24,000 bases of DNA from Candidatus Moraniibacteriota bacterium (GTDB lineage Bacteria; Patescibacteriota; Minisyncoccia; Moranbacterales; UBA1568), in assembly GCA_043743535.1 (NCBI GenBank), contig JAYTWI010000021.1, positions 1 through 24,000 of the forward strand. The letters run 5' to 3'. The translations under genes were made by a program, and so were the position numbers. Positions within the stretch are counted from its first letter, which is position 1. Every line of letters starts with the position of its first letter. Of this stretch, positions 1 through 11,714 are shown one piece after another. Under the pieces are notes generated by a model. That model was not told the DNA's origin and did no database searches. It saw only the letters and a program-made list of their open reading frames with translations.

Positions 1-2
1 GT

Positions 3-302
3 GACTGGGGTAAGCATGTGCCGCTCACCCCCTCTGGGGAAGATTGTTTCAATTATTGGGGGTATAAGGGGGCTGGCACTCGTGGCACGGCGATGGGGCA
101 TGGTTGCTTTGGTAGCCCGGAAGAAGCGGTGATAGCTGTGGGCAATCGTTTGACCGAGTTGGTGGCAATCCGTCAGGGGAGTGATCCTTCCAGTATGATT
201 ATTTGGAAATGTGGTTCGAGCTGTGCTACCCATAGTAAGGAAAGCGTGCGCAAGTGGATAAGTGACGTCGATATCTATTATCAAAAAATCGCTCAACAGT
301 AA
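3..302 (+). CDS. hypothetical Cys-rich protein, C-terminal part (5' end outside window)
   Basis: The frame is open from nt 3 (DWGKHV-PLTPSGEDCFNYWGYKG...) with no in-frame stop before the window edge. The track ORF 18..302 would need a GTG start. No family recognised. There is only a vague NxWGxKG...F.SPEEA resemblance to glucosaminidase-type wall hydrolases. Confidence 0.4.
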   Translation, partial: DWGKHVPLTPSGEDCFNYWGYKGAGTRGTAMGHGCFGSPEEAVIAVGNRLTELVAIRQGSDPSSMIIWKCGSSCATHSKESVRKWISDVDIYYQKIAQQ

Positions 303-367
303 ACTGACTCAAAGAACCAGAAGAAGAAACAGGTATTACGGGCGCCGAACTTGTCAGCTCCATTCCT

Positions 368-619
368 TTGGATATCTATCTCTTTGACTATCCGAAAGAA
401 GTGTTCGGTTATCGAAAAAGTATTTATAATCTTTGTTTCCTTGCTTTCTTACCAGCGGGACAAGAACCGAAAATAATGGAGCCTGAGAAGTGTAAAGAAA
501 TGCGTTTGGCTACTCCCGAAGAGGCTTTGACAATGATTGAGACGATACACCATGAAGGAACGGCCAGGCTGATCCAAAAATGGCAGTCTTTAGCAAAGAA
601 AAAAGAAGCAATGGCGTAG
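368..619 (+). CDS. hypothetical small protein (start uncertain: TTG 368 or ATG 476)
   Basis: Track ORF of 83 aa with no recognisable motif and no clear RBS. It is listed only because it is the sole sense ORF in this gap. Confidence 0.2.
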   Translation: MDIYLFDYPKEVFGYRKSIYNLCFLAFLPAGQEPKIMEPEKCKEMRLATPEEALTMIETIHHEGTARLIQKWQSLAKKKEAMA

Positions 620-917
620 CAATGCTTCTTTCGAAGTTCAATCTTTCTGGGCCAGGACCCAGAGGTGGCTCTCGGCGCTGCCGAAGTCTTTCTCGTTTTC
701 GGCAATCATCCAATTTATTTTAGTGAAACCAGAACGGAATTACTTTGATTTTATTTTGTAGCGCTATCCCGCAAAAATTCAAAAAAATCTGTGCGGATTC
801 CTCCTCAGACCCCACCCTCCGCGCGGACAAAATTCAAAAAAAATTAGTCTCGGTTTTGCGAAAACTATTTTCTAGGGATTTAGATTTTTGAAAAATCGAT
901 CCCGAATAGTTCTTTAT

Positions 918-957
918 AAAAAGAAAAAGTGGTGGTACGAGCGAGTCGTACCACCAC
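918..957 (-). terminator. rho-independent terminator of the MOSC gene
   Basis: Perfect 12-bp stem GTGGTGGTACGA/TCGTACCACCAC (929-940 / 946-957) with a 5-nt loop. On the minus strand it is followed by U5CU5 (plus-strand aaaaagaaaaa, 918-928). It starts 14 nt after the MOSC stop codon. Confidence 0.8.
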
Positions 958-971
958 CTGTCGAGCAACCC

Positions 972-1589
972 CTACTCGGGGTTGTAGATTCGCTGACGTG
1001 GAATTTTCGCGATGACTGTGTCGCCCGCGTGGATGTTGCCGGAGGCATAAATGCTCCCGACGATTCCACGCTTGCCGATGGCCGCCTTAGGGAAGAGACC
1101 CACGAGTCCAGAGATGTCCGGAAATTTCTCTTGGATCGCTTCACCCGGTCCTTGGCACGGCATGTTTTCCGACCACACCACCAGCACGGCTGTTCGGAGC
1201 TGCCTCTCGTCTTTGCAAAAGAACAACATCGTTCCGGTGGGAAGCTCGGTAAGCTTCGGGATGCCATTCAAGACCAAATTCTCGCCGAGGCAGCCGTGCG
1301 GAATTGGATTCGGAAGACCCATCGCTTGCGCGACTTTCGCGAGTTCCTCAATGGAAACAGCGGAAAACTCCCGATGGTTGGCAATCTCGATACCCTTGAG
1401 AAATCCAAAAGAGAGAAGTTCTTTCTCGCGGACGTCCGCGAGCCGTACCCCAGCGTGATTGTCGCCCCTGACGCCATGTCCGCGAATCAGTTGAATCTTC
1501 GGGACTGACATCGAAAGGATTGAGCCAAAGCTAGCCGCCACAAGGACAGCTTCGACTCGTCCTCTTAGTTCGAAAGCTGACTTTATCAT
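972..1589 (-). CDS. MOSC domain-containing protein (YiiM-like)
   Basis: Translation contains GHGVRGDNHAG, GENLVLNG and the conserved-Cys stretch NMPCQGPG, typical of MOSC domains. Start moved from track 1646 to ATG 1589, which sits 5 nt downstream of a perfect AGGAGG (plus-strand cctcct, 1595-1600). Hand counts show it is clearly GC-richer than its neighbours. Confidence 0.8.
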   Translation of the reverse strand: MIKSAFELRGRVEAVLVAASFGSILSMSVPKIQLIRGHGVRGDNHAGVRLADVREKELLSFGFLKGIEIANHREFSAVSIEELAKVAQAMGLPNPIPHGCLGENLVLNGIPKLTELPTGTMLFFCKDERQLRTAVLVVWSENMPCQGPGEAIQEKFPDISGLVGLFPKAAIGKRGIVGSIYASGNIHAGDTVIAKIPRQRIYNPE

Positions 1590-1631
1590 TTGATCCTCCT
1601 CGGTCGTGAATTGTTGGAACGAACCGATAGT

Positions 1632-1660
1632 AGTATAACTTGACAATATTAGTAAGTCAA
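1632..1660 (-). promoter_or_regulatory. sigma70-like promoter for the MOSC gene
   Basis: On the minus strand: TTGACT (plus 1655-1660), a 17-nt spacer, then TATACT (plus 1632-1637). It lies about 40 nt upstream of ATG 1589. Confidence 0.5.
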
Positions 1661-1865
1661 ACGAAAACAGGAACCCTTTTGAGTCTCTGCTTTCAAAAAA
1701 TCCTTATGAAAAAATTTCTTTTGCCTTTACAAAATATGGTTCGAGCCGATTTGTTCTCAGGTTCTTTGGTAGTTTTGGGTGTGCGCGGCGAGGACAGAAT
1801 TCCGTTTGAGCTATTTCAAGAATACACTGTCAAAATTGAAAATTGGAATCGGAAGAAAAAATGAA

Positions 1866-2254
1866 GAGGCTGGTTTTGAGATTGAGACTGTTTATGGTGA
1901 CTGTGATAGGAGCCTTTTCTTGGCAAATACTCTCGAACTAATCCATTCATATTCTCTACCCCTCCTTTTTGCCAAGAAGCATACGTATCACAGAAGTAGG
2001 AAGGTATTCCGAGAAACTTCCTTGTCTCCTGATGTAAGACATTTTCTGTTCCATTGTCTCGCGTGATGCTTCTACGAAGAAACGGGGGTAGGAGAGAAAG
2101 AGGTTTCTGAACCCTTCTTGGTTGTCGGTCTTTCTGTTGATGACTGAGTAGTCTCTTCCTAACTTTTCTGGGTAATCCAGGTCTTTTTCTTCTTCATACG
2201 TAGGTAGAGTTCAATACGTTCTCGTTCAAGAAAAGTCACTCGCTGTACAGGCAT
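1866..2254 (-). pseudogene. IS30-family transposase remnant (frameshifted, large internal deletion)
   Basis: Minus-strand pieces lie in three different frames. MPVQRVTFLERERIELYLRMKKKKTWITQKS* starts at 2254. LGRDYSVINRKTDN resembles the IS30 HTH LGRSxSTISRExxRN. ITRDNGTENVLHQETRKFLGIPSYFCDTYASWQKGGVENMNGLVREYLPRKG matches the DDE-domain end pattern IT.DNG.EF....YF..PY.SW.RG..EN.NGL.R.Y.PK. Only about 390 bp remain of a gene that is normally about 1 kb. Confidence 0.7.
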
Positions 2255-2452
2255 ATCTTTTTTGGCTTAGATGGGTTATGTACCATCCTACTCCAGAAAA
2301 GGGGCAATGGGTTTAGAATTCACCGAGTTTTTTGTTATACAGACGGCCGCGGCCTTTTCGGGTATAATGAAAGAGTGAATTTTCGAGTCTCTTGATGGTG
2401 TTTTTTGCAGCCTTCACTTATATATTGACAGTGATACGCTAACAGCTATTCT

Positions 2453-3388
2453 ATGACGTGGGTTTTGGTGGCGCTTCTCGGATATTTTTTCAATGCCGTT
2501 TCAGCGCTTTTTGATAAATTTCTTTTGTCTGATCGAATAGGAGCACCAGTCGTCTATGCTTTTTTCGTCTCCCTTTTCAGTCTGTTTGCACTTTTTTTTA
2601 TTCCGTTTGGTTTTCATTTTGGCGACTTTCGAAACTCGGGTCTCTTGGTGTTTTCCGGGATGCTTTTTATTTATGGGCTGGTGGCATTTTACTACGCGGT
2701 CAAAAACCACGAGGTTTCCCGGGTGGCACCGCTTCTCGGAACAGTAGTATCGCTCGTGGGCTTTGGGGCGGCATTTCTTCCGGGAAATATTGATGGCAAC
2801 ACGCTCAGCGTTTGGTCATTTTTGGCACTGGTTTTTCTCATCATTGGTGGTCTACTCATCTCTTTTGATTTACCATTGCGCAAAGGTGAAACGATTTCCA
2901 AACTCGTCTTGATCGCTGGCCTTTTCATCGGAGTTTCTGCTGTTTTATTGAAATATGGTTACGGGCAAACCAATTTCGTGAGTGGTGTGGTATGGCAGCG
3001 TTTCGGGATGTTTTTGGGGGGCTGTAGTCTCCTCCTCACACCCTCTTTTCGTCAGCAGATTTTTGACCAGTTGGCACATTTTTCTCAAAAGCCAGCCCGC
3101 GCCAGGAGTACGGGCTTGTTCTTTGTGCTCAATAAGGTATGTGCTGGAGTGGCAGCTTTTCTCATTTCTTACGCCACTTTCCACGGCTCTGTTTCCTTTG
3201 TCCAGGCTTTAGCCGGTATGCAGTATGTTTTCATTCTCCTCTTGGCCTTTCCTCTCGTGCGGTTGTATCCGGATATCTATCAGGAGAAGCTCTCCTTGTT
3301 TGACTGGTTACAAAAAGCCGGGGCGGTGGTGCTCATTGGAATCGGGCTGTGGCTTATGACTACTCATGGTATTAAAATACTTTTATGA
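2453..3388 (+). CDS. polytopic membrane protein, EamA/DMT-like
   Basis: 311 aa that are almost entirely hydrophobic helices (about 10 TM segments), arranged as two similar halves like drug/metabolite transporter proteins. The stop overlaps the next start (ATGA at 3385-3388). Confidence 0.55.
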   Translation: MTWVLVALLGYFFNAVSALFDKFLLSDRIGAPVVYAFFVSLFSLFALFFIPFGFHFGDFRNSGLLVFSGMLFIYGLVAFYYAVKNHEVSRVAPLLGTVVSLVGFGAAFLPGNIDGNTLSVWSFLALVFLIIGGLLISFDLPLRKGETISKLVLIAGLFIGVSAVLLKYGYGQTNFVSGVVWQRFGMFLGGCSLLLTPSFRQQIFDQLAHFSQKPARARSTGLFFVLNKVCAGVAAFLISYATFHGSVSFVQALAGMQYVFILLLAFPLVRLYPDIYQEKLSLFDWLQKAGAVVLIGIGLWLMTTHGIKILL

Positions 3389-4419
3389 TGAAGATGTATA
3401 CTTTTTTGAAAAAATTTTTCAAGTGGCTAGGGTACTCCCTTTTGGGGGTTTTAGGTCTCGTACTTCTTCTTTTTGGGTATTTTAATCTGCCAGGGCCAAC
3501 GCCGCGAGAAGACGTGTCTTTGGGGATGACTTTTTCCTCCCGTTACGCTACGGGGCTTGGGCTTGATTGGAAGGAAACCTATCTCGCGTTACTCGATGAT
3601 GTCGGCGTTAAAAAAATGCGCCTGCCAGTCTATTGGGACCTCGTAGAAAAAGACAAGGGAACCTATGATTATGCTGATGTAGATTGGCAAGTGGCTGAGG
3701 CGCACAAGCGTGGGGTGGACGTCATTTTGACGGTCGGCCTGAAGGTGCCACGTTGGCCAGAATGCCATATTCCGAATTGGGCTAATGAGAATGAAACCGT
3801 GCGTCGTAAGGGTATACTTCATTTTATTATAGAGACGGTAAAGCGGTATCAAAATGATCCGACGGTCAGTACCTGGCAGGTGGAGAATGAGCCCTTTCTC
3901 CCCTTTGGTATTTGTCCGGCTTTCGATGTTTCTCTTCTCGAACAAGAAGTGGCACTGGTGAAAGCGATGGATCCTACTCGGCCAGTTTTGCTGACAGACA
4001 GCGGCGAGCTTTCGCTGTGGTTGGGGGCTGCCAGTCGGGGTGACAAATTTGGGACGACGCTTTATCGTGATATTTATAGCAAAAAAGTGGGCGGTTATTT
4101 CACCTATCCGATTGGGCCGAATTTTTTCCGCTTCAAGGCTTGGCTGGTGAGAACTTTTACTCATCAGAATAATTTGATAGTGATTGAACTTCAGGCTGAA
4201 CCGTGGGCTAGCGGTTGGGTGGTGGACGTGCCACTTCTGGAACAATTTAAGACCATGAATGAAAACAAATTGCGCGACAATGTCCGTTATGCCAAGCAAG
4301 TGGGCTTTTCAGAAGTGTATTTGTGGGGTGGAGAGTGGTGGTATTGGATGAAGACTAAAAAGGATTATCCGGCCGTCTGGGAGGCGGGCAAAGAATTATT
4401 TCACGAACATGCACAGTAA
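3385..4419 (+). CDS. membrane-anchored glycoside hydrolase, clan GH-A (GH5/GH42-like TIM barrel)
   Basis: N-terminal TM helix (WLGYSLLGVLGLVLLLFGYF), then MRLPVYWDLVE...GVDVILTVG...WQVENEPF, where NEP is the catalytic acid/base motif of clan GH-A enzymes. Translationally coupled to the upstream membrane protein. Confidence 0.6.
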   Translation: MMKMYTFLKKFFKWLGYSLLGVLGLVLLLFGYFNLPGPTPREDVSLGMTFSSRYATGLGLDWKETYLALLDDVGVKKMRLPVYWDLVEKDKGTYDYADVDWQVAEAHKRGVDVILTVGLKVPRWPECHIPNWANENETVRRKGILHFIIETVKRYQNDPTVSTWQVENEPFLPFGICPAFDVSLLEQEVALVKAMDPTRPVLLTDSGELSLWLGAASRGDKFGTTLYRDIYSKKVGGYFTYPIGPNFFRFKAWLVRTFTHQNNLIVIELQAEPWASGWVVDVPLLEQFKTMNENKLRDNVRYAKQVGFSEVYLWGGEWWYWMKTKKDYPAVWEAGKELFHEHAQ

Positions 4420-4933
4420 GAGTCCGCCGTCCTTTATCTTGATCCTCCACAATATTCGCAGTGCCCACAACGTGGGGGCGATGTTCCGCACCGCCGATGG
4501 AGCAGGAGTGGCAGAAATTATCCTTTCGGGGTATACGCCAGTGCCGGCAAAAAAGGGCGCCCTCTATCTGACTGATGCTGATAAGGCTCTCCATAAGACG
4601 GCTCTGGGAGCTGAGTATATGGTGCCGTGGCGGAAGGTGGCTACGCCGGGACGGACGCTTACTCTTTTGAAGAAGTCAGGCTTTACGGTGGTAGCGCTCG
4701 AGCAGATGAAGGGAAGTGTTCCTTATCAGCAATACAAATCCAAAGGGCCCGTAGCACTTATTGTGGGGAACGAAGTAAGAGGGATTGATCAGAAAATTCT
4801 TAAGCAGTGTGACACGGTGCTCGAAATTCCGATGCGTGGTGCTAAGAACTCTCTCAATGTTTCGGTAGCTTGTGGCATTGCGCTCTATCAGATTACCGCT
4901 ACAATGAGAGAGGGTGGAATAAAAAATTCTTGA
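4409..4933 (+). CDS. SpoU/TrmH-family RNA 2'-O-methyltransferase
   Basis: Contains LILHNIRSAHNVGAMFRTADGAG, LIVGNEVRGI and EIPMRGAKNSLNVSVACGIALYQI, the three SPOUT motifs. Overlaps the GH gene end by 11 nt. Confidence 0.85.
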   Translation: MHSKSPPSFILILHNIRSAHNVGAMFRTADGAGVAEIILSGYTPVPAKKGALYLTDADKALHKTALGAEYMVPWRKVATPGRTLTLLKKSGFTVVALEQMKGSVPYQQYKSKGPVALIVGNEVRGIDQKILKQCDTVLEIPMRGAKNSLNVSVACGIALYQITATMREGGIKNS

Positions 4934-5667
4934 TGACAATAATGATCAAACGAAAAGAAAAACTAGCTATCTTCGACATCGACGGCACAATTTTTCGCAA
5001 GAATCTACACTTCGAATTGATTAATGAACTGTCTTGGATGAAGGTGTTTCCAGCCGTGGCACGTAATGAATTGGTCAAGATCTACACCAACTGGCTCGAG
5101 CACGAAGGCACCTACGAAGACTATCGCCAGGCTTTGGTCGCCCTCTATTCAGAACATATCAAGGGCTGCCCACAGTCCGAAGTTATCCGTGCGAGCAAAC
5201 TCCTCATACCTTTTCACGCCAAGCGCACCTACATCTTTGCTGAGCGGCTGATAAAGAAATTACGGGCGGAGAATTACCGGATGCTGGTCATTTCCGGTTC
5301 GCCCTTGGAAGTGGTGGAAGAGTATAATCGTCAGTACCTCAATTTTGATGCGGTCTTTGGGAGCATTTACGAAGTTGACAGTCATGGTTTGTACACGGGC
5401 GTGGCCTCTTTCGAACCCTCTAAGAATAAAGGACATTTGGTGGAACAGTACCTCTATGAACATAAGCTATCACTTGCTGAATCATATGGAATTGGTGATA
5501 CTGAGAGTGATAGCAGTTTTCTCAAGTTGGTGGAGCATCCCATTGCCTTCAATCCCAATATGAACCTGAAAGACGAGGCGCAGAAAAACGGCTGGCGGAT
5601 TATCGTGGAAAAAAAGGATGTGATTTATGAAATGACCGATACCTATCTTAATGAACCGATACTATGA
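4933..5667 (+). CDS. HAD-IB superfamily hydrolase (phosphoserine-phosphatase-like)
   Basis: Motif I FDIDGTIF (DxDxT), then SGS and GDTESD. Start moved from track 4870 to ATG 4933, which overlaps the SpoU stop (TGATG). Confidence 0.8.
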   Translation: MTIMIKRKEKLAIFDIDGTIFRKNLHFELINELSWMKVFPAVARNELVKIYTNWLEHEGTYEDYRQALVALYSEHIKGCPQSEVIRASKLLIPFHAKRTYIFAERLIKKLRAENYRMLVISGSPLEVVEEYNRQYLNFDAVFGSIYEVDSHGLYTGVASFEPSKNKGHLVEQYLYEHKLSLAESYGIGDTESDSSFLKLVEHPIAFNPNMNLKDEAQKNGWRIIVEKKDVIYEMTDTYLNEPIL

Positions 5668-5774
5668 ACCTTAATGCCTCGATCGACAAATTCATGCACG
5701 GGACGGCATGGTTATGGCTACCGTTTTACGCCCTCTTTCACTTGATCGAAAAGATTGGTGAGCGCAAGAAATAA
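5664..5774 (+). CDS. candidate 36-aa small membrane protein (below the ORF-track size cutoff)
   Basis: Its ATG overlaps the HAD stop as ATGA (5664-5667). Translation is MNLNASIDKFMHGTAWLWLPFYALFHLIEKIGERKK, with one hydrophobic helix and a basic tail. Confidence 0.25.
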   Translation: MNLNASIDKFMHGTAWLWLPFYALFHLIEKIGERKK

Positions 5775-5829
5775 CTTCTTCTCTTCTAGAGAACAGAAAT
5801 CCTCAAGTATTTTCTTAAGCCCTCTTCCT

Positions 5830-6234
5830 ATGTGCTTTCCGAAGCTTACCACACTACCATCGTTGTTTCTCTCTGCGACGACGCTCGTTTTTTGGCTTGG
5901 GCTCATTTTCTTTCTCTCTTCGCTCCCAGGCAATCCTACATCGTATGATCCGCCCCTCTGGTACTTTGTGGAACGCAAGAGCGCCCATATTTTTGAGTAC
6001 GGCGTGTTGATGCTCCTTACCTTGCGTTTTGTGAAAGAGTATTTTCATACTGAACGATTGGCAAAGCATCTTTTATTGGCGGCAGTATTTTCCTTAGCCT
6101 ATGGGGCAAGTGATGAATTACATCAGTTTTTCGTGCCCTACCGAGGCGCCCGCTTGACGGATATTCTGATTGACGGATTGGGGGCATTACTGATGACTAG
6201 TATCCTCTGGTTATGGGAAAAGCGTCGGGTATGA
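5830..6234 (+). CDS. VanZ-like family membrane protein
   Basis: Contains FVERKSAHIFEYGVL, AYGASDELHQFFVPYRGARLTDILIDGLGALL and TM helices. ATG 5830 is preferred over the track TTG 5755 because the protein then starts with a hydrophobic helix. Confidence 0.75.
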   Translation: MCFPKLTTLPSLFLSATTLVFWLGLIFFLSSLPGNPTSYDPPLWYFVERKSAHIFEYGVLMLLTLRFVKEYFHTERLAKHLLLAAVFSLAYGASDELHQFFVPYRGARLTDILIDGLGALLMTSILWLWEKRRV

Positions 6235-6322
6235 TGGGGCATTATTGAGCAATTTTTTGGAGAGTGTGATAAACTAATCAAAAGGTGTTTTAGTAGGATT
6301 TAATAAACGTAATAAACGTACT

Positions 6323-7177
6323 ATGGAGACAGGAGAAAAGTCGTGCTGCACAGAGGAAACGAGCGGGTTTGGGAGACGGTCTGCCACCTCAGTGGTGAAG
6401 ATTGTCGGGTTGTTAGTGTTGGGTGCAGTCTTGATAGTTGGTTTACTCAAGGACACCACCACTTTTGATAATACGGTAGTAGATGATACCATCTCCGTCA
6501 TTGGCCAGGGTAAGATGCCTATCAAGCCTGATGCGGCACTGATTAATCTAGGAGTGCTCACCATCAAAGCTGACTCACCGGAAGCGGCCATAATGCAGAC
6601 ATCAGAAAAATTGAGCAAAGTCGGCGTCGCCTTAGACGCGCTCGGTATTCCCAAGGAAAATCGTCAGATGACTGGTTACGCTGTCAGCCCACGCTATAAG
6701 GATCTAGCTTCTGCTAGTGATGGAACCAATCCTACGGCGAGCAAGCCAGCAAGCATAGATGGCTACACCTGTACCCAACAGATTACGGTGCGGGTACCCA
6801 ACATTGTCGATGACCCTGAAGCGGTGAACAAGGTGATCACGGCCGCTGCCAAAGAAGGCGTTAACCAAGTGGGCGAGGTAAAATTCATTGCGACCAATGT
6901 CGAGTCGGTCAAACAGGAAGCTCGTTTGCGAGCGGTAGCTAATGCTAAGGACAATGCCAAGAATATGGCTGATGTGGCCGGGGTGAAACTGGCGGGCATC
7001 ACTACCTGGAATGAGAGTGTTCTTTCCGAGCCTGGCCAAAACTACAATTCGAATTACTACGGATCACCTCCTCAGGGTGCCACGGTGCCGACTCCACCCT
7101 CGAGCATAGTGGTGTTACAACCCGGACAGCTCGATGTCGTCGTAGAGTTGAACGTGACGTACCGAGTGAAGAAATAA
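6323..7177 (+). CDS. SIMPL (DUF541/BP26-like) domain protein with N-terminal TM anchor
   Basis: After the TM segment: ISVIGQGKMPIKPDAALINLGV..., VESVKQEARLRAVANAKDNAKNMADVAGVKLAGI and LQPGQLDVVVELNVTYRV. This is the typical SIMPL-domain layout. Confidence 0.8.
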   Translation: METGEKSCCTEETSGFGRRSATSVVKIVGLLVLGAVLIVGLLKDTTTFDNTVVDDTISVIGQGKMPIKPDAALINLGVLTIKADSPEAAIMQTSEKLSKVGVALDALGIPKENRQMTGYAVSPRYKDLASASDGTNPTASKPASIDGYTCTQQITVRVPNIVDDPEAVNKVITAAAKEGVNQVGEVKFIATNVESVKQEARLRAVANAKDNAKNMADVAGVKLAGITTWNESVLSEPGQNYNSNYYGSPPQGATVPTPPSSIVVLQPGQLDVVVELNVTYRVKK

Positions 7178-7197
7178 TCGTACTTACTGAGAAACTT

Positions 7198-7224
7198 AAA
7201 AACCCGCCACCAGGGCGGGTTTTT
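7198..7224. terminator. bidirectional rho-independent terminator (SIMPL gene / rplT)
   Basis: AAAAA-CCCGCC-ACCAG-GGCGGG-TTTTT. The GC stem is 7203-7208 / 7214-7219, flanked by an A run on the left and a T run on the right. It lies between two convergent genes. Confidence 0.8.
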
Positions 7225-7249
7225 GTATGACGAGAATCCCTTTCGCTCA

Positions 7250-7594
7250 TTATCGAACCTTTTCCACGAACGTTTTGAAAGTCTCGGGATTTTCAGCAGC
7301 CATCTGTGAGAGCACCTTGCGATCGAGGGCGATATTCTTTTCACCCTGCAGAGCGATGAATGTCCGGTAAGCAATACCGTGCAAACGGAGCGCGGTGTTG
7401 AGACGGGTGATCCATAGACTGCGGAAGGTACGCTTCTTGGCACGGCGGTCGCGGTGGGCGTATTTACCGGCCTTGATGACAGCTTCTTTGGCCTTAGTAA
7501 ACAAATTTTTGCGACCCCAGCGGAAACCTTTAGCGGCTTTGAGGACGTTCTTATGGCGTTTCTTGGTCATGACGCCGCGCTTTACTCTCGTCAT
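7250..7594 (-). CDS. rplT: 50S ribosomal protein L20
   Basis: MTRVKRGVMTKKRHKNVLKAAKGFRWGRKNLFTKAKEAV...RRAKKRTFRSLWITRLNTA is unmistakable L20. It is the last gene of the infC-rpmI-rplT order. Confidence 0.97.
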   Translation of the reverse strand: MTRVKRGVMTKKRHKNVLKAAKGFRWGRKNLFTKAKEAVIKAGKYAHRDRRAKKRTFRSLWITRLNTALRLHGIAYRTFIALQGEKNIALDRKVLSQMAAENPETFKTFVEKVR

Positions 7595-7628
7595 ACGATT
7601 CTCTTATTCGGATTACTTGGGAAATACG

Positions 7629-7829
7629 TTAGATGGCGTAGGGCATGGCTTTTTGAATGTTTTTTTCTTCAGTGCGGAAAATGCCGTGATCTTTGCGCTT
7701 GGCCCTCGTGGCGGCGCCTGTATCGCGGGAATTGTAGTGGTTGTGGCCAGTGGAGCGGCGCAAGAGCTTGCCGGTACCAGTCACTTTTACTTTTTTGGAA
7801 ATAGACTTCCGGGTCTTCATCTTAGGCAT
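7629..7829 (-). CDS. rpmI: 50S ribosomal protein L35
   Basis: MPKMKTRKSISKKVKVTGTGKLLRRSTGHNH... is a typical L35 N-terminus. Its size (66 aa) and operon position also fit. Confidence 0.95.
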   Translation of the reverse strand: MPKMKTRKSISKKVKVTGTGKLLRRSTGHNHYNSRDTGAATRAKRKDHGIFRTEEKNIQKAMPYAI

Positions 7830-7853
7830 ACGATTGGCTTTATAATGGTGATG

Positions 7854-8402
7854 TTATTCTGGGACGATGAGGGCATTGAACCCCATCGGACCGCGTTTGA
7901 CTTCTTCTTCAAAGCGATGTGGAACGGTGATGCTTTTGATGAATTCTATCAGGCTCAATCTTGCTTTTTCCTGCATGGCCTTTTCGCGACCGCGCAACAC
8001 TATTTCGAATTTAACCTTATTGCCTTTGGTGAGGAATTTTTCTGCCTGAGTCTTTTTGAAGAGGAGGTCGTGACCAGCGGTGCGGAATCCGATACGGATG
8101 CCTTTGGTTTCCACTTTGCGTTGCTTGGCCTTCTGCTGCTGTTCCTGCTTGGCTTGACGGTACTGGAGCTTACCGTAGTCAGTAATCTTGCACACTGGCG
8201 GCTTGGCCAATGGGGACACTTCCACCAAGTCAGCTTCTTGTTCCTGAGCCAAGACAATGGCTGAGGCGGTGTCCATCAACCCACGGTTGCTTCCGTCTAG
8301 GTCAATAACCATCACTTGAGGAGCAAGAATCTTCTCGTTGGTACGCAGATGATCCTTCAGCTGCACTTTTGGTTTGGGGCGGTTGTGGCGTCTTCTTCTC
8401 AC
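7854..8402 (-). CDS. infC: translation initiation factor IF-3
   Basis: Contains TNEKILAPQVMVIDLDG...DLVEVSPLAKPPVCKITDYGKLQY and a C-domain KGNKVKFEIVLRGRE. The start is taken as GTG 8402 from the track. An in-frame ATA at 8412-8414 cannot be excluded, because infC often uses atypical starts. Confidence 0.92.
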   Translation of the reverse strand: MRRRRHNRPKPKVQLKDHLRTNEKILAPQVMVIDLDGSNRGLMDTASAIVLAQEQEADLVEVSPLAKPPVCKITDYGKLQYRQAKQEQQQKAKQRKVETKGIRIGFRTAGHDLLFKKTQAEKFLTKGNKVKFEIVLRGREKAMQEKARLSLIEFIKSITVPHRFEEEVKRGPMGFNALIVPE

Positions 8403-8421
8403 TTTTTTTCTTATTAAAAAA

Positions 8422-8823
8422 TGGTGGAGTTGATGGGAATTGCACCCATGTCCAGAGCAGTTTTTTCAAAATATTCTACAAGCGTAGTCAGCTTTGGGTA
8501 AATGCATGAGGTAGAAAGCAGACAAAATCCGCATACATTCTTTTCTTTGGCAATACGATCACAGAGGGTAAAGAAAAAGAAATACTCTGGTCACGTCTCG
8601 ATAATATGACACCGGAGATTCTTTATCGAGAATCAAGAGTCCGATGGCGACTCACAATTAAGCGAGTGCGAGAGCGAAAGAAGGAGCAAACGCTTGCGCG
8701 AATGCATTCTTTGCCTTGGTGATGAAGTTTGCATTTATCATCGTGAGAAGGATATTTACGACCATCTCCTCAAGGTCGGCTTGCCTATTTTGAAAGTACA
8801 GCCTGTCGAGTCTAAGCAACCCC
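8422..8823 (-). ncRNA. ssrA: tmRNA (transfer-messenger RNA)
   Basis: The minus strand starts GGGGUUGCUUAGACUCGACAGG (compare the conserved GGGGnUGAuUcuGGAUUCGACGGG). It ends GGACAUGGGUGCAAUUCCCAUCAACUCCACCA, which is a T-arm, then an acceptor 3' strand complementary to the 5' GGGGUUG with a G3-U70 pair, then an encoded CCA. It contains an internal tag frame and sits directly downstream of smpB. Length is 402 nt. Confidence 0.9.
8658..8732 (-). other. tmRNA tag-peptide reading frame (ANFITKAKNAFAQAFAPSFALALA, then stop)
   Basis: After ...GAUGAUAAAU the frame reads GCA AAC UUC AUC ACC AAG GCA AAG AAU GCA UUC GCG CAA GCG UUU GCU CCU UCU UUC GCU CUC GCA CUC GCU UAA. GCA AAC is also the E. coli resume sequence. 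The exact resume codon could be a later in-frame GCA. Confidence 0.6.
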
Positions 8824-8834
8824 ATTTTGGAAAA

Positions 8835-8862
8835 TTTTTCATTTCCAATTTTTCATTTCCAA
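8835..8862. repeat. perfect 14-bp tandem duplication (tttttcatttccaa x2)
   Basis: Units are 8835-8848 and 8849-8862, in the 72-bp spacer between the smpB stop and the ssrA 5' end. On the minus strand each unit carries TTGGAA, a possible -35 for ssrA. Confidence 0.85.
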
Positions 8863-8895
8863 TGTATTTGAAAAGGAAAAATTGTGAATGGAATA

Positions 8896-9339
8896 TTATC
8901 CTCGCATAGCACGCTCTATCCGACGCTTGGCTTCACGCTTGCCTATATCAGCCCGACGGTCATATTCTTTCTTGCCACGGCCTATCGCAAACTCTAGTTT
9001 GACAAGTTGCTTCTTAGTATACAACCGAATAGGGACGAGTGTCAAGCCTTCTGTGCGGTATTTTCCGATGAGAGAGCCGATTTCCCGTTTGCGTAACAGG
9101 AGCTTTCGTGGCCTACTATCTTCGTGCTTGGTGTCACGGTGGGCCTGGGCATAGCGAGGGATCAGAGCATTGGTCAAGTAGAGCTCACTTCCTTTGACCG
9201 TGACAAAGGCGCCTTTCAGGCTGGCATGGCCTGTTTTGACGCTTTTTACTTCAGCACCAGTCAATACCAAACCAGCCTCGAAGTGTCCTTCCAGAGCGTA
9301 ATCAAAAGTGGCTCGTTTGTTCCTGGCGATGGTTTTCAT
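8896..9339 (-). CDS. smpB: SsrA-binding protein SmpB
   Basis: MKTIARNKRATFDYALEGHFEAGLVLTGAEVKSVK...LLLRKREI...GRGKKEYDRR is canonical SmpB. Start moved from track 9408 to ATG 9339, the usual M..IA.NK.A..DY N-terminus. Confidence 0.93.
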   Translation of the reverse strand: MKTIARNKRATFDYALEGHFEAGLVLTGAEVKSVKTGHASLKGAFVTVKGSELYLTNALIPRYAQAHRDTKHEDSRPRKLLLRKREIGSLIGKYRTEGLTLVPIRLYTKKQLVKLEFAIGRGKKEYDRRADIGKREAKRRIERAMRG

Positions 9340-9401
9340 AGGCTTGTAGCACCCGTACTTTCCCACATTTGGCTCAAATAAGCAAGCAATTGCGAAAAGT
9401 A

Positions 9402-9430
9402 TTGACATAACAGGTTAGATATGCTATAAT
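9402..9430 (+). promoter_or_regulatory. consensus sigma70 promoter facing the GC-rich island
   Basis: TTGACA (9402-9407), a 17-nt spacer, then TATAAT (9425-9430), with a TGn extended -10 at 9422-9424. Both hexamers match the consensus exactly. The predicted transcription start is near 9437, about 225 nt upstream of ORF A. Confidence 0.6.
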
Positions 9431-9520
9431 TAAAAAATAATTTGAGGTGGTGAAATATCCCTTAAATTATGGAAATTGTTCTTTGATAAACGAGATTTAG
9501 CGAAAAAAATTCTCTTGTTC

Positions 9521-9627
9521 TCCTCTCTTCGTGAGTAGCACAGTGGATGTCTAAAAAGATTTCTAGTATGCTACTCATGTCGAGGAGCCCTTAATGCGGG
9601 GATCGCATTATTTCACGCTCACGGCCA
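9521..9627 (+). repeat. structured leader module, copy 1 (upstream of ORF A)
   Basis: About 92% identical to 10828-10934 (8 mismatches and 1 indel by hand), with 61 nt identical (9529-9589). P1 is CTCTTCG/CGAGGAG (9525-9531 / 9581-9587). P2 is TGAGTAGCA/TGCTACTCA (9532-9540 / 9569-9577), with a 28-nt loop and a TGT bulge. A second hairpin is AATGCG-GGGAT-CGCATT (9593-9609). Confidence 0.85.
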
Positions 9628-9661
9628 CAGGCCACGAGCAAGAAAAAACAGGAGAAAGAAA

Positions 9662-10660
9662 ATGGAAAGTCTTCAATATTCAGACGGAATCGGTTCCCGT
9701 GGACGGAACCCGTTTCTTCTCTTAGTGAAAGGAGATGAAGTTATCGTCTTCCGCGGACAGAGCATTCCCGGTGTGGTAGTGGTGCGAGGCACCGACTACA
9801 CCAAGAATGGTAAGTGGTCGCACACCACTTACCGGCTCCAGTTGGCGGACGGAATCCGCCACATCGTGGGACGGAATGGCTGGGAAACTAGTCGCTTCGT
9901 GGAAGGACTCGCTTTAGCGGTTGGTTGTGCTACGCCCGACACGTGGGCGGACACGGCCAAGGCGTTAGGGATTTCGGTTCCGAGCGCGATGGAGTTCTTG
10001 CGGAGCTGGAGGCAGCAGGAGGCCGAGAAGTTGGACGAGATCGAGCAGTCGTTGGCGAAACTCGAGGAAGTTTCCAAAAAGAAAACTGACTCGGTGATCG
10101 TCACGGTAAGCTTCGGCTCGCCGACCAATCACGCCGTGCGAGAAGGCTACTGGGAATCCCCCAAGTCTATCCCCGGCTACAACGCGGAGATTCGTAAGAT
10201 CGACGCGAGCGGAAGCTGGATCGAGGGGAACATCGTGGTTATCGGGATTTCCGGCACCGTTCTCTCTGTCAAGTACTCGTCCGGCATGCACGGCGGATAC
10301 TACGGAGTCTCCGTCGGGGTGATTCCGGGAACGGAAACCGAGATCCCGCCTTTCGAGACCGCCCGTGAAAAGGCGGCGACGGAAAGCGGACTGCCCAAGA
10401 ATCTCTTCCGAGCCTTCAACGGCGACGAGGAGCGAATTCGCGAGTTCATGGCAAAGGTCGCAAGACTGGATGCCGGAAAACTCGACGAGCACGAGTTCTC
10501 GTGCGGTCGGGCACGCAAGAGCGCGGAAGTGATTCGCGTCTCCGGCGACCTGGAATTCTTCCTCGGTGCTGATCCGTTGGAAGTTTGCGGGTATATCGAG
10601 GAGGTTCACTTCCCCTCGAACGCGCCCAAGACTTCCGACCCCCGAGGCCTCGTCGGCTAG
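9662..10660 (+). CDS. hypothetical protein, no recognisable family (ORF A, 332 aa)
   Basis: AGGAG at 9650-9654 lies 7 nt before ATG 9662. It is a long ORF in a GC-rich stretch with no signal peptide. A central coiled-coil-like segment reads WRQQEAEKLDEIEQSLAKLEEVSKKK. Confidence 0.6.
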   Translation: MESLQYSDGIGSRGRNPFLLLVKGDEVIVFRGQSIPGVVVVRGTDYTKNGKWSHTTYRLQLADGIRHIVGRNGWETSRFVEGLALAVGCATPDTWADTAKALGISVPSAMEFLRSWRQQEAEKLDEIEQSLAKLEEVSKKKTDSVIVTVSFGSPTNHAVREGYWESPKSIPGYNAEIRKIDASGSWIEGNIVVIGISGTVLSVKYSSGMHGGYYGVSVGVIPGTETEIPPFETAREKAATESGLPKNLFRAFNGDEERIREFMAKVARLDAGKLDEHEFSCGRARKSAEVIRVSGDLEFFLGADPLEVCGYIEEVHFPSNAPKTSDPRGLVG

Positions 10661-10751
10661 TGGTAACACCATGCTCGGCGACGCACTCCGCAAAGCCGAA
10701 CTCCGCTAGTCTCGTATTTCCAGCTTGAGGGTCTGGATTAACAAAACCCTC

Positions 10752-10802
10752 TCTGTTTCGGAATGTTTATTCCGACTGATGAGCTCAAAAGAGCGAAACA
10801 GA
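10752..10802 (+). ncRNA. type III hammerhead self-cleaving ribozyme motif
   Basis: 5'-UCUGU U^ UCGGAAU-GUUU-AUUCCGA CUGAUGA GCUC-AAAA-GAGC GAA ACAGA-3'. Helix III is 5 bp (10752-10756 / 10798-10802). Helix I is a 7-bp hairpin (10758-10764 / 10769-10775). Helix II is 4 bp (10783-10786 / 10791-10794). The cores CUGAUGA (10776-10782) and GAA (10795-10797), plus A15.1-U16.1 and G10.1-C11.1, are all present. The cleavage triplet is GUU, with the cut predicted after 10757. Confidence 0.8.
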
Positions 10803-10827
10803 TTGCACTTTGTAAAAAATAAGTTTT

Positions 10828-10934
10828 TCCTCTCCTCGTGAGTAGCACAGTGGATGTCTAAAAAGATTTCTAGTATGCTACTCATGTCGAGGAGCCTCGG
10901 TGCGGAGCACGCATAATTTCACGCTCACGGCCAA
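10828..10934 (+). repeat. structured leader module, copy 2 (upstream of ORF B)
   Basis: Same module as 9521-9627. P1 is CTCCTCG/CGAGGAG (10832-10838 / 10888-10894). P2 is 10839-10847 / 10876-10884. The one P1 difference from copy 1 (U to C) turns a G-U pair into G-C. The second hairpin keeps 5 pairs, including a G-U. Confidence 0.85.
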
Positions 10935-11055
10935 CCTACCCGCCACCCTCAAATTGCAGAGTGTTCGGATTCAAATGGGAACTTATGGAACGCTCGACAC
11001 AGTTCTTTCGATTCATCTATCGGCTCAGTTTCGAGCCAACAACTGGAGCAGCTCT

Positions 11056-11604
11056 ATGTCAAAGATTTCCGCTTCCTTTATTGCCGCTGTGGGTTTCTCA
11101 GCTATCTCTCTGGCGGCCTCCTCGGTCTGCGCGGCAAAAACAGAAAGCGCTCCGCTCTCGCCTGTCATCAGGGTGGAAGTCCAGGGGAAAGATATGATGT
11201 TGGCTCAAATGGGCAGGGACGGCGAGCCAATGATTCATGTCTTTGCTCGGTCTCCCAACCAAGCTGACGGCACCGAGCAGCTCTTTCGCAAGATCACTGC
11301 CGTGCTGCTGGGCAGTGGCTATCAGTGGAGGGGCAGCGACCAGTCGCTTGACAAAAACATTTGGTGCAAGGTCGAGACGACTTCCGTCCCGATGAAGGTA
11401 TCTTCGAAGGTATCTTCCCCGGCTGCCCTTGTGGCTGATGTCAGCTGCAACTTGAAAATCAGGGAAGGTAAATCGAACGACAAGACCCGCGTCATAAGGC
11501 TTGTCCAGTTTGGGTCTGGACCCAATCTCGACGACGGGGTGGCTCTGATTCCGGGGCTCATTGCCGAAGCCTACGCCGAAGCGCAACGGCTGACGGCGAA
11601 ATAG
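11056..11604 (+). CDS. hypothetical secreted or membrane-anchored protein (ORF B; alternative GTG start at 10900)
   Basis: GGAG at 11045-11048 lies 7 nt before ATG 11056. The N-terminus MSKISASFIAAVGFSAISLAASSVCA-AKT looks like a signal peptide. The frame is also open upstream to GTG 10900, inside the repeat module. Confidence 0.6.
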   Translation: MSKISASFIAAVGFSAISLAASSVCAAKTESAPLSPVIRVEVQGKDMMLAQMGRDGEPMIHVFARSPNQADGTEQLFRKITAVLLGSGYQWRGSDQSLDKNIWCKVETTSVPMKVSSKVSSPAALVADVSCNLKIREGKSNDKTRVIRLVQFGSGPNLDDGVALIPGLIAEAYAEAQRLTAK

Positions 11605-11636
11605 TAGGCGCAATCGCCAAATCGTCCAGCTAACCG

Positions 11637-11670
11637 CCGGGTACCACATGATGGTGCTCGGCTTTTTTCT
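11637..11670 (+). terminator. rho-independent terminator closing the island
   Basis: CCGGGUACCA (11637-11646), loop CAUGA, UGGUGCUCGG (11652-11661). This gives 10 pairs, including two G-U, followed by CUUUUUUCUUU. Confidence 0.8.
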
Positions 11671-11714
11671 TTGCATTTCTTTTTTTGTGCGCTAGGATTA
11701 GGGAGGATCAACCT

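Follow-up and report, generated by a model that had tools for sequence, protein, structure and literature searches.

The window analysed here is a 24,000-nucleotide (nt) stretch of a Candidatus Moraniibacteriota genome (contig JAYTWI010000021.1, positions 1 to 24,000, forward strand), and all coordinates below are window positions. Between two of its open reading frames (ORFs), ORF A and ORF B, lies a motif that, as judged from its sequence and its relatives, is almost certainly a true hammerhead ribozyme under selection. The best explanation overall is probably that of a genuine type III hammerhead of a compact subtype, which serves as the 3'-terminal RNA element of an acquired unit and separates messages. 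We infer catalysis, co-transcription and an effect on the fate of the messenger RNA (mRNA). The element is located as follows.

10752-10802, forward strand: type III hammerhead ribozyme, identified by its core, helices, RF00008 match, fold, relatives, covariation and shuffle controls

The hammerhead motif and its relatives

As read on the forward strand, the motif has the form UCUGU-U-UCGGAAUGUUUAUUCCGA-CUGAUGA-GCUCAAAAGAGC-GAA-ACAGA. Helix III is formed by UCUGU (10752-10756) and ACAGA (10798-10802) over five pairs, in which U16.1 (10756) is paired with A15.1 (10798). The next base, U10757, is H17; it completes a GUU triplet and places the predicted cleavage site at 10757/10758. Helix I (UCGGAAU-GUUU-AUUCCGA, 10758-10764 with 10769-10775) consists of seven Watson-Crick pairs and a GUUU loop and is followed by C3-A9, which reads CUGAUGA at 10776-10782. 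Helix II (GCUC-AAAA-GAGC, 10783-10786 with 10791-10794) has four pairs, of which G10.1-C11.1 is the closing pair, and an AAAA loop. G12-A14 is GAA at 10795-10797. All three helices surround the core; loops close helices I and II, and helix III remains open. The minimum free energy (MFE) fold of the 51-mer (-16.5 kcal/mol, z = -3.3) has the hammerhead secondary structure, with helix III running on into the core, and all three helices are also kept when the entire spacer (400 nt) is folded in the same way.

The probability of a chance match was estimated by running a purpose-written hammerhead descriptor on the window and on dinucleotide shuffles. The window gave one match, compared with a mean of 0.0275 per shuffle at loose helix minima, and no match was obtained in 400 shuffles at the observed helix lengths. 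The original prediction for this DNA had placed every invariant core position in the canonical type III order, with helices of 5, 7 and 4 pairs, a GUU triplet and cleavage after U10757, in a spacer of 395 nt between the ORF A stop codon (10660) and the ATG of ORF B (11056). Direct reading bears out each of these points, and the shuffles agree with its judgement that a chance origin is very unlikely.

Relatives of the motif were sought in 69 loci from genome and metagenome collections that encode relatives of ORF A, together with two viral contigs (413 kb, both strands). The descriptor recovered 29 strict type III hammerheads, all on the strand of ORF A. A covariance model (R1) was built from 17 relatives and gave 33 matches in the same 413 kb, again all co-oriented with ORF A and including variants that the descriptor had missed. 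Applied to the window, this model found no second hammerhead on either strand, so that the ribozyme is present there as a single copy. Downstream sequence of 400 nt or more was available behind the ORF A homologue in 62 loci; in 24 of these a ribozyme follows the homologue within 1 kb, mostly starting 36-90 nt past the stop codon.

The pairing of the motif is well conserved while its sequence changes. In the model-based alignment A4, which was fitted to the model and of which part had been collected by a descriptor requiring short helices, paired cells make up 98.1%, and 13 of the 16 pairs, spread over all three helices, show compensatory changes on both sides. The covariation score was reached by none of 500 shuffles, and when the partner strand was slid by 1-3 columns as a register control, pairing fell to 33-46%. 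The same covariation picture was obtained with a MAFFT alignment. In helix I the descriptor demanded no more than 4 bp, and all 7 are paired. The C3-A9 columns are invariant in alignments of 17 and 23 sequences, both drawn from descriptor matches, and the 15.1-16.1 pair is U-A in all 27 sequences with letters at these positions. H17 was never G in the matches examined; it is C or U in nearly all of them and A in a few from phages. Stem I has been found as UCGGAA/UUCCGA, GGUAAG/CUUACC, GUGAGA/UCUCAC and UGCAGA/UCUGCA. Since the relatives share position, orientation and compensatory changes, the motif is taken to be a selected RNA structure and not a chance arrangement.

The loops stay constant while the stems covary, loop I being UGUGUA-like and loop II GAAA or AAAA, which is the pattern expected if the loops make a tertiary contact. 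The subtype is defined by a 7-bp stem I with the UGUGUA-like loop, a 4-bp stem II with GAAA or AAAA and a stem III of 4-6 bp, and the consensus of the relatives can be written CUGU(C/U)-6/7 bp-UGUGUA-6/7 bp-CUGAUGA-GUCC-GAAA-GGAC-GAAAC. The window copy is predicted, with good confidence, to cleave itself. Several loci depart from the simple arrangement. Two to three ribozyme copies are present in loci L003, L030 and L044, where they stand on both sides of ORF A. Non-canonical 10.1-11.1 pairs are found in L003b (L003:3750-3804; C/A) and at L009:5353-5407 (U/U). At L055:1900-1952, single-base core deletions lie beside a multiply frameshifted ORF A, and these may be homopolymer sequencing errors.

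The covariance model of the type III hammerhead in Rfam (RF00008, Hammerhead_3, clan CL00010) matches 10750-10804 over its full length (model positions 1-54) with 39.8 bits and E = 1.8e-7 in the 301 nt searched. The core is the same as that of the model (CUGAUGA, GAA, A15.1-U16.1 and an H17 other than G); the stem II loop has about 8 nt in the model and 4 nt in the window motif. The gathering score of RF00008 is 48.5 bits, a limit curated for annotation purposes, not one set by biochemistry. At Rfam gathering thresholds the whole-window scan did not report the hammerhead, its sole match being a transfer-messenger RNA (tmRNA). Twenty related loci, which hold several dozen clear relatives including phage copies, likewise gave no hammerhead at the gathering threshold of RF00008. 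Because no relative in these 20 loci reaches 48.5 bits, the sub-threshold score is a matter of the cut-off and not of a defective motif. The original prediction had named a covariance-model score below threshold as one half of its refuting condition. The score does fall below the gathering threshold, but this does not refute the motif here: the match is full-length at E = 1.8e-7 and the relatives scanned are equally sub-threshold. Routine annotation based on Rfam misses this subtype, since it scores under the gathering score.

The same ribozyme subtype has also been found in phages. An exact-pattern scan of IMG/VR identified 12 contigs (L072-L083), on which model R1 gave 34 matches, three to four per roughly 10 kb, co-oriented and intergenic. 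The replication genes of these contigs resemble those of Flavobacterium podophages, and the next start codon typically follows the ribozyme by a few tens of nt. Each of the phage ribozymes is preceded by a strong hairpin that abuts helix III, often a near-identical GGUGUCU-UCAA-AGACACY, and in 69% of them this hairpin reaches at least 8 bp. No protein or leader is common to the phage contigs and the patescibacterial unit. Only two IMG/VR contigs were found to have an N-terminal domain like that of ORF A, and both lack the ribozyme.

The acquired unit around the ribozyme

The ribozyme is one of several elements that are arranged in the same orientation between the smpB gene and the end of ORF B.

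9402-9430, forward strand: sigma-70-type promoter of the island, TTGACA-17 nt-TATAAT with TG before the -10 element, matching the consensus at 12 of 12 positions
9436-10993, forward strand: inserted stretch as judged against the sister genome L085, with 1558 nt in the window where L085 has about 10 nt
9518-9661, forward strand: leader module copy 1, a direct repeat of 10825-10933, with compensatory changes
9662-10660, forward strand: ORF A, 332 amino acids (aa), of a conserved, uncharacterised Patescibacteria protein family with 175 homologues
10727-10751, forward strand: hairpin P0 (GAGGGU / ACCCUC), ending one base 5' of helix III and present in the MFE fold of the spacer
10825-10933, forward strand: leader module copy 2, with hairpins 1-2 and the UUUCACGCUCACGG motif and lacking the third hairpin and the Shine-Dalgarno part
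11056-11604, forward strand: ORF B, 182 aa with a signal-peptide-like N-terminus, a resident gene with the single homologue P0122 (51% identity)
11636-11672, forward strand: intrinsic terminator of the ORF A-ORF B unit, with a stem of 11 bp (7 of them G-C) and then TTTTTTCTTT

The sister genome L085 gives the outline of the insertion. Its positions 1-4670 match 4724-9386 of the window with 84.5% nucleotide identity over 4.7 kb, and its positions 4749-4870 match 10994-11115. In a local alignment, L085 4738 stands opposite window position 9435 and L085 4749 opposite 10994. The gene order HAD hydrolase, VanZ, SIMPL, L20, L35, IF-3 and SmpB is common to both. In L085 the ORF B homologue P0122 directly follows smpB, and ORF A, the ribozyme and the leader are absent. 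The original prediction had taken ORF B for a second gene of the island, which is not supported: since smpB and ORF B adjoin in L085, ORF B is a resident gene and the insertion carries ORF A only. The G+C content is about 55% in the stretch 9500-11600, compared with about 45-50% for the window. The inserted stretch is best read as a horizontally acquired unit of about 1.6 kb, made up of promoter, leader, ORF A, P0, hammerhead and partial leader, between smpB and ORF B. The reverse history, in which the unit was lost from L085, is possible and has the same boundaries.

The promoter itself appears to belong to the island. Homology to other ORF A islands (L024, L025, L055, L007, L032 and L033) starts at about the -35 hexamer (9402), and the promoter stretch 9387-9435 has been replaced or has diverged relative to L085, with a spacer of the island type and not of the L085 type. 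The island promoter and the native ORF B promoter of L085 have TTGAC...ATATGCTA(A/T)AAT in common and differ in their spacers. The 1558-nt insertion lies directly 3' of a promoter. This hints that the unit may insert at, or recombine with, promoter-like sequence. A scan found no terminator between ORF A and ORF B, and one promoter and one terminator bracket both genes. The own promoter of ORF B has been displaced, and ORF B therefore appears to depend on read-through from the island, which would make cleavage at 10757/10758 consequential for it. For the 60 nt at 10934-10993 there is no match in either the island family or L085.

Two candidate origins of the unit were examined and rejected. A phage origin of the island found no nucleotide match in 50,697 phage records, and no phage gene was recognised in the unit. 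Integration directed by the tmRNA does not fit the position of the island, which lies on the 5' side of ssrA, beyond smpB, and not at the 3' end of the tmRNA. In L003 and L007, transfer RNA (tRNA) genes adjoin the ORF A unit on its downstream side (L003:5218-5443 and L007:5072-5144), and in L032 they lie about 1.3 kb downstream of it (L032:3205-3364); the unit in the window adjoins smpB and ssrA. There may be an insertion preference near small-RNA genes. Some 2.5 kb before its ORF A unit, L033 encodes four tandem small hydrophobic proteins (L033:6-1451), which look like pilins of the VirB2/TrbC type by eye only. If this likeness is right, some ORF A units may sit in conjugative elements.

The 175 homologues of ORF A are 50-85% identical to it, and every named one comes from a metagenome-assembled genome of Patescibacteria; many lie on short contigs. 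No match to ORF A was found in Pfam, PHROG, PADLOC or NCBIfam, and no Pfam domain is present among the matches listed for the homologues (120 of the 175). The AlphaFold (AF2) model of ORF A has a predicted local distance difference test score (pLDDT) of 88.9, and a Foldseek search with it against the PDB and BFVD gave no match at E <= 0.001. A segment resembling a helix-turn-helix (HTH) gave weak matches only (HTH_10, E = 0.035; LacI headpiece, E = 0.84).

Immediately upstream of the ribozyme, the P0 hairpin has counterparts in most relatives. Of the related ribozymes, 77% have a hairpin of 6 bp or more that ends where helix III begins, compared with 17% of position-restricted control positions, and P0-type hairpins have at least nine different stem sequences among the relatives. 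The phage ribozymes have an abutting hairpin too, which argues that a stable hairpin followed by a type III hammerhead is a general design and not a peculiarity of this locus. In the window, CCAG (10720-10723) could pair with CUGG (10733-10736) in the P0 loop, and P0 may be part of such an H-type pseudoknot. One or two compensatory variants of this candidate have been seen (ACAG/CUGU in L003), and per-sequence shuffle controls do not discriminate it from chance. At L002:1189-1310 the P0 region and ...CGAAACAGA are kept and CUGAUGA has been lost.

Downstream of the ribozyme stands a leader of about 110-145 nt, which starts about 20 nt 3' of it. Copy 1, in front of ORF A, has first a long bulged hairpin (about 9525-9584), next a 6-bp hairpin and the conserved AUUUCACGCUCACGG motif with the third hairpin, and last an A-rich stretch with the Shine-Dalgarno sequence for ORF A. 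Copy 2, downstream of the ribozyme, is 88-97% identical to copy 1, and its homology to other leaders ends at about 10933. In 16 aligned copies, 11 of the 36 predicted pairs have compensatory changes. The three-hairpin leader with invariant AUUUCACGCUCACGG is also present in L021-L025, L032, L033, L040, L044-L046, L050, L055 and L065. In Rfam, copy 2 matches nothing at E <= 10; copy 1 was scanned at the gathering threshold only. The leader could serve in protein binding, in translation or in mRNA stability.

What follows the ribozyme differs among loci. In about 18 of them an ORF led by a Shine-Dalgarno sequence starts at +63 to +282 after the ribozyme; in L003, L012, L059 and L028 an intrinsic terminator follows and there is no further ORF; and in the window the next gene is a host gene (ORF B). 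Because some relatives have a terminator and no second cistron, the conserved partner of the ribozyme is the 3' end of the upstream gene and not a downstream ORF. The genes that recur behind the ribozyme and leader include a family of about 306 aa that starts MYQFATLDPRNIP (L022:1482-2402, L024:5326-6246, L033, L046 and L003:887-1882) and a small membrane protein (MFNSLLFEIV...) in L021 and L065. The family of about 306 aa and others of the cargo proteins of the relatives gave no Pfam or PDB-sequence match. An AAA_5 ATPase and a 354-aa partner are flanked by hammerheads in L044 (L044:4914-6801), and upstream of the ribozymes in L003 lie a gene for a Csx3-domain protein (L003:3265-3573; Cas_csx3 in Pfam) and a small ORF of similar appearance (L003:524-871).

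In loci of the Uhrbacteria type, a different conserved structured RNA, not a hammerhead, follows a paralogue of ORF A (L013:4808-4985, L014:2089-2266, L015:4811-4988, L016:4817-4994, L038:5060-5240 and L006:5063-5180). It has a hairpin CCAUGC-ACGGAUC-GCAUGG inside CCUCC/GGAGG, after which a terminator-like hairpin follows, and a possible pseudoknot between the loop GGAUC and a downstream GAUCC, which covaries as GGGUC/GACCC. Apart from a spurious match to SCARNA7, the element has no Rfam match at E <= 10. As it takes the position of the ribozyme after the ORF A paralogue, it is a candidate for an equivalent function. Other ribozyme classes were considered for 19 hammerhead-free ORF A loci and rejected; Rfam at gathering thresholds gave tRNAs only.

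Proposed role and alternative explanations

In the proposed mechanism, transcription from the promoter at 9402-9430 would read through to the terminator at 11636-11672, and the ribozyme would fold and cleave between U10757 and U10758. The ORF A message would then end in a 2',3'-cyclic phosphate six nt past the P0 hairpin or pseudoknot, which would act as a 3' protective cap. From what is generally known of RNA decay, a 3' end with a hairpin and a cyclic phosphate should resist 3' exonucleases and tailing. The downstream RNA would start with a 5'-OH and continue with the folded ribozyme body, the leader hairpins and ORF B. Through cleavage into two messages, stability and translation could come to differ between them, and the unit would be insulated from downstream sequence. 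The original prediction had described a type III hammerhead placed to sever an ORF A-ORF B co-transcript, and this placement holds up in view of the conserved position and orientation, the covariation and the bracketing transcription signals. The near-constant upstream side of the ribozyme and its variable downstream side suggest that it has been selected for forming the 3' end of the upstream message. On balance, 3'-end formation of this message together with cistron separation seems the likelier function under selection.

Several observations weigh against this reading. The covariance score of the window copy (39.8 bits) is below the gathering score of 48.5 bits. About 60% of the ORF A loci have no hammerhead, so that the ORF A gene does not need the ribozyme. 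The GUU triplet (H17 = U) is permitted but usually cleaves more slowly than GUC. Loop I of the window copy is UGUUUA where UGUGUA is usual for the ribozyme family, and because of this departure the tertiary contact could be weaker. ORF A stops at 10658-10660, and the C-terminal tail of its family (GNTMLGDALRKAELR and a stop codon) follows in the +1 frame (tail 10662-10709). The offset tail is either a truncating frameshift or an assembly error, and with a C-terminal frameshift the ORF A copy in the window may be decaying. Finally, the co-transcription of ORF A and ORF B is a prediction from consensus scans.

Alternatively, the ribozyme might be real but have no role in the locus, as a hitch-hiking or decaying relic of a mobile unit whose cleavage is neutral for ORF A and ORF B. 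The frameshifted C-terminus of ORF A, the incomplete second leader, the degenerate copies in L002 (CUGAUGA lost) and L055 (core deletions beside a broken ORF A) and the roughly 60% of ORF A loci without a ribozyme are in line with such a relic. It is nevertheless unlikely, given that all core positions and 16 of 16 pairs are intact in the window copy and that purifying selection on the structure is seen across the ribozyme family. Moreover, ORF B has lost the promoter seen in L085 and appears to depend on read-through, so that processing would be consequential. A chance match without ribozyme function could be argued from the RF00008 score under the gathering threshold; it is so improbable as to be negligible and is refuted by the comparative data, which comprise no match in 400 shuffles, E = 1.8e-7 and 33 co-oriented relatives with compensatory changes.

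More elaborate roles have also been weighed. The ribozyme might be a regulated switch and not a constitutive cutter, modulated by the ORF A protein, the P0 pseudoknot or a factor-bound leader in a form of feedback control. The HTH-like segment of ORF A (weak matches only) and the presence of the same leader before ORF A and before the following gene would suit such a switch. So would the conserved structures on both sides, which are more elaborate than simple caps, and the P0 loop of L044 (UCUCAC), which equals the 3' strand of stem I and could allow an alternative pairing. This pairing, however, lacks covariation support beyond one lineage, the pseudoknot evidence is weak, the phage relatives have a plain hairpin and no leader, and Rfam gave no match to a ligand-binding RNA family; a switch is considered distinctly improbable. 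Even less probable, and by a clear distance, is an RNA-level life cycle in which a unit-length RNA would be cut out for circularisation or reverse transcription, in the manner of viroids, satellite RNAs and retrozymes. Circular products have been raised as a possibility for bacterial hammerheads (Perreault et al., 2011; PMC3088659), and in L003, L030 and L044 the ribozymes flank ORF A and would free an RNA of gene length, whose termini (5'-OH and 2',3'-cyclic phosphate) are of the kind that RtcB-type ligases join. The window, however, has one copy, none on the other strand and no second predicted cleavage site; no reverse transcriptase or replicase was found in the sample of neighbouring genes scanned in the flanks of the relatives; and the unit is integrated DNA with its own promoter and defined boundaries.

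The favoured explanation, a ribozyme that ends the ORF A message and separates it from the next, can be extended to a broader proposal, which is tentative and rather doubtful as a whole. The hairpin or pseudoknot, the hammerhead and the three-hairpin leader would together form the dedicated junction module of small, promoter-carrying mobile units, a family not described before, that are built around ORF A and occur across Patescibacteria. The module would give a defined, protected mRNA 3' end and a standard 5' leader for the downstream gene, be it cargo or host. ORF A, which is highly conserved and has an HTH-like segment and a fold without a match in the PDB or BFVD, would be a nucleic-acid-binding or mobility factor, maybe associated with the ribozyme or the leader, and the Uhrbacteria-type RNA would be a functional substitute, possibly self-cleaving. 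If this is true, the unit could enter between a promoter of the host and the gene it drives and leave that gene expressed.

Known systems and genomic context

The ribozyme is a canonical type III hammerhead and belongs to a known category, the gene-flanking ribozymes of mobile DNA. For gene-flanking hammerheads of bacteria and phages, the processing of long transcripts into gene-length mRNAs has been proposed, not demonstrated (Perreault et al., 2011; PMC3088659), and a review only suggests the processing of polycistronic mRNA as their role (PMC6765202). The hammerheads of Perreault et al. (2011) likewise stand co-oriented between genes of mobile or phage DNA, with neighbour genes that are not constant, and their arrangement has an exact counterpart in L003, L030, L044 and the phage contigs. 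The present case differs in its patescibacterial host and in its single copy in the window. It also differs in being fixed to one uncharacterised gene family, 36-90 nt past the stop codon, with a 5' hairpin and often a 3' leader. In the full-text literature, no relevant paper was found that combines the hammerhead with Patescibacteria or the candidate phyla radiation (CPR). The host group, the coupling to one uncharacterised gene family and the composite of hairpin, ribozyme and leader appear not to have been described before.

The hammerhead of the satellite RNA of tobacco ringspot virus (sTRSV, plus strand) and RiboJ, which is derived from it, have the same architecture and stem lengths as the consensus of the relatives and a very similar loop I, a comparison by sequence only. 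The 5' part of RiboJ reads CUGUC-ACCGGA-UGUGCUU-UCCGGU-CUGAUGA-GUCC... RiboJ is reportedly a hammerhead with a hairpin, placed upstream of a ribosome-binding site, that removes variable upstream RNA and standardises downstream expression. The natural order found here (ribozyme, leader hairpins, ribosome-binding site) would work alike on paper. sTRSV is a circular satellite RNA with rolling-circle processing and RiboJ is engineered, whereas the present ribozyme lies in chromosomal DNA within a bacterial operon. A passage of PMC6263354 cites Lou et al. (2012) for RiboJ.

Retrotransposons offer a further likeness. In R2 and L1Tc, ribozymes resembling that of hepatitis delta virus (HDV) cut the element RNA out of a host co-transcript (PMC6765202), so that there, too, a mobile insertion carries an edge ribozyme that separates its own RNA from the host transcript. 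In those elements the ribozyme is of another class and stands at the 5' edge of eukaryotic retroelements with a reverse transcriptase, whereas here it stands at the 3' edge, and no reverse transcriptase was seen in the sample of neighbouring genes examined. The hammerheads of viroids, satellites and retrozymes are placed so as to release a unit-length RNA, as two copies or on a multimeric or circular template and usually outside any protein-coding operon, in contrast to the one copy found here in integrated DNA with a promoter and a terminator.

The ribozyme itself will not surprise a specialist, and the value of the case lies in the comparative pattern. Roles for the hundreds of bacterial and phage hammerheads have so far only been suggested. 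This ribozyme family is a clean comparative case, with a near-fixed distance after one gene, an upstream hairpin and variable downstream content, and the pattern makes the question experimentally simple. The ribozyme also marks a widespread, uncharacterised mobile unit and protein family in Patescibacteria.

The remainder of the window resembles a chromosome of Patescibacteria (CPR) and encodes IF-3, tmRNA, SmpB, a rhodanese-family protein, the arginyl- and isoleucyl-tRNA synthetases (ArgRS and IleRS) and other housekeeping genes. ARAGORN reported no tmRNA or tRNA anywhere in the window. By Rfam, the tmRNA on the reverse strand (8422-8823) is full-length, with 115 bits, and has a long insertion in the tag region of the alignment; it may be an unusual tmRNA.

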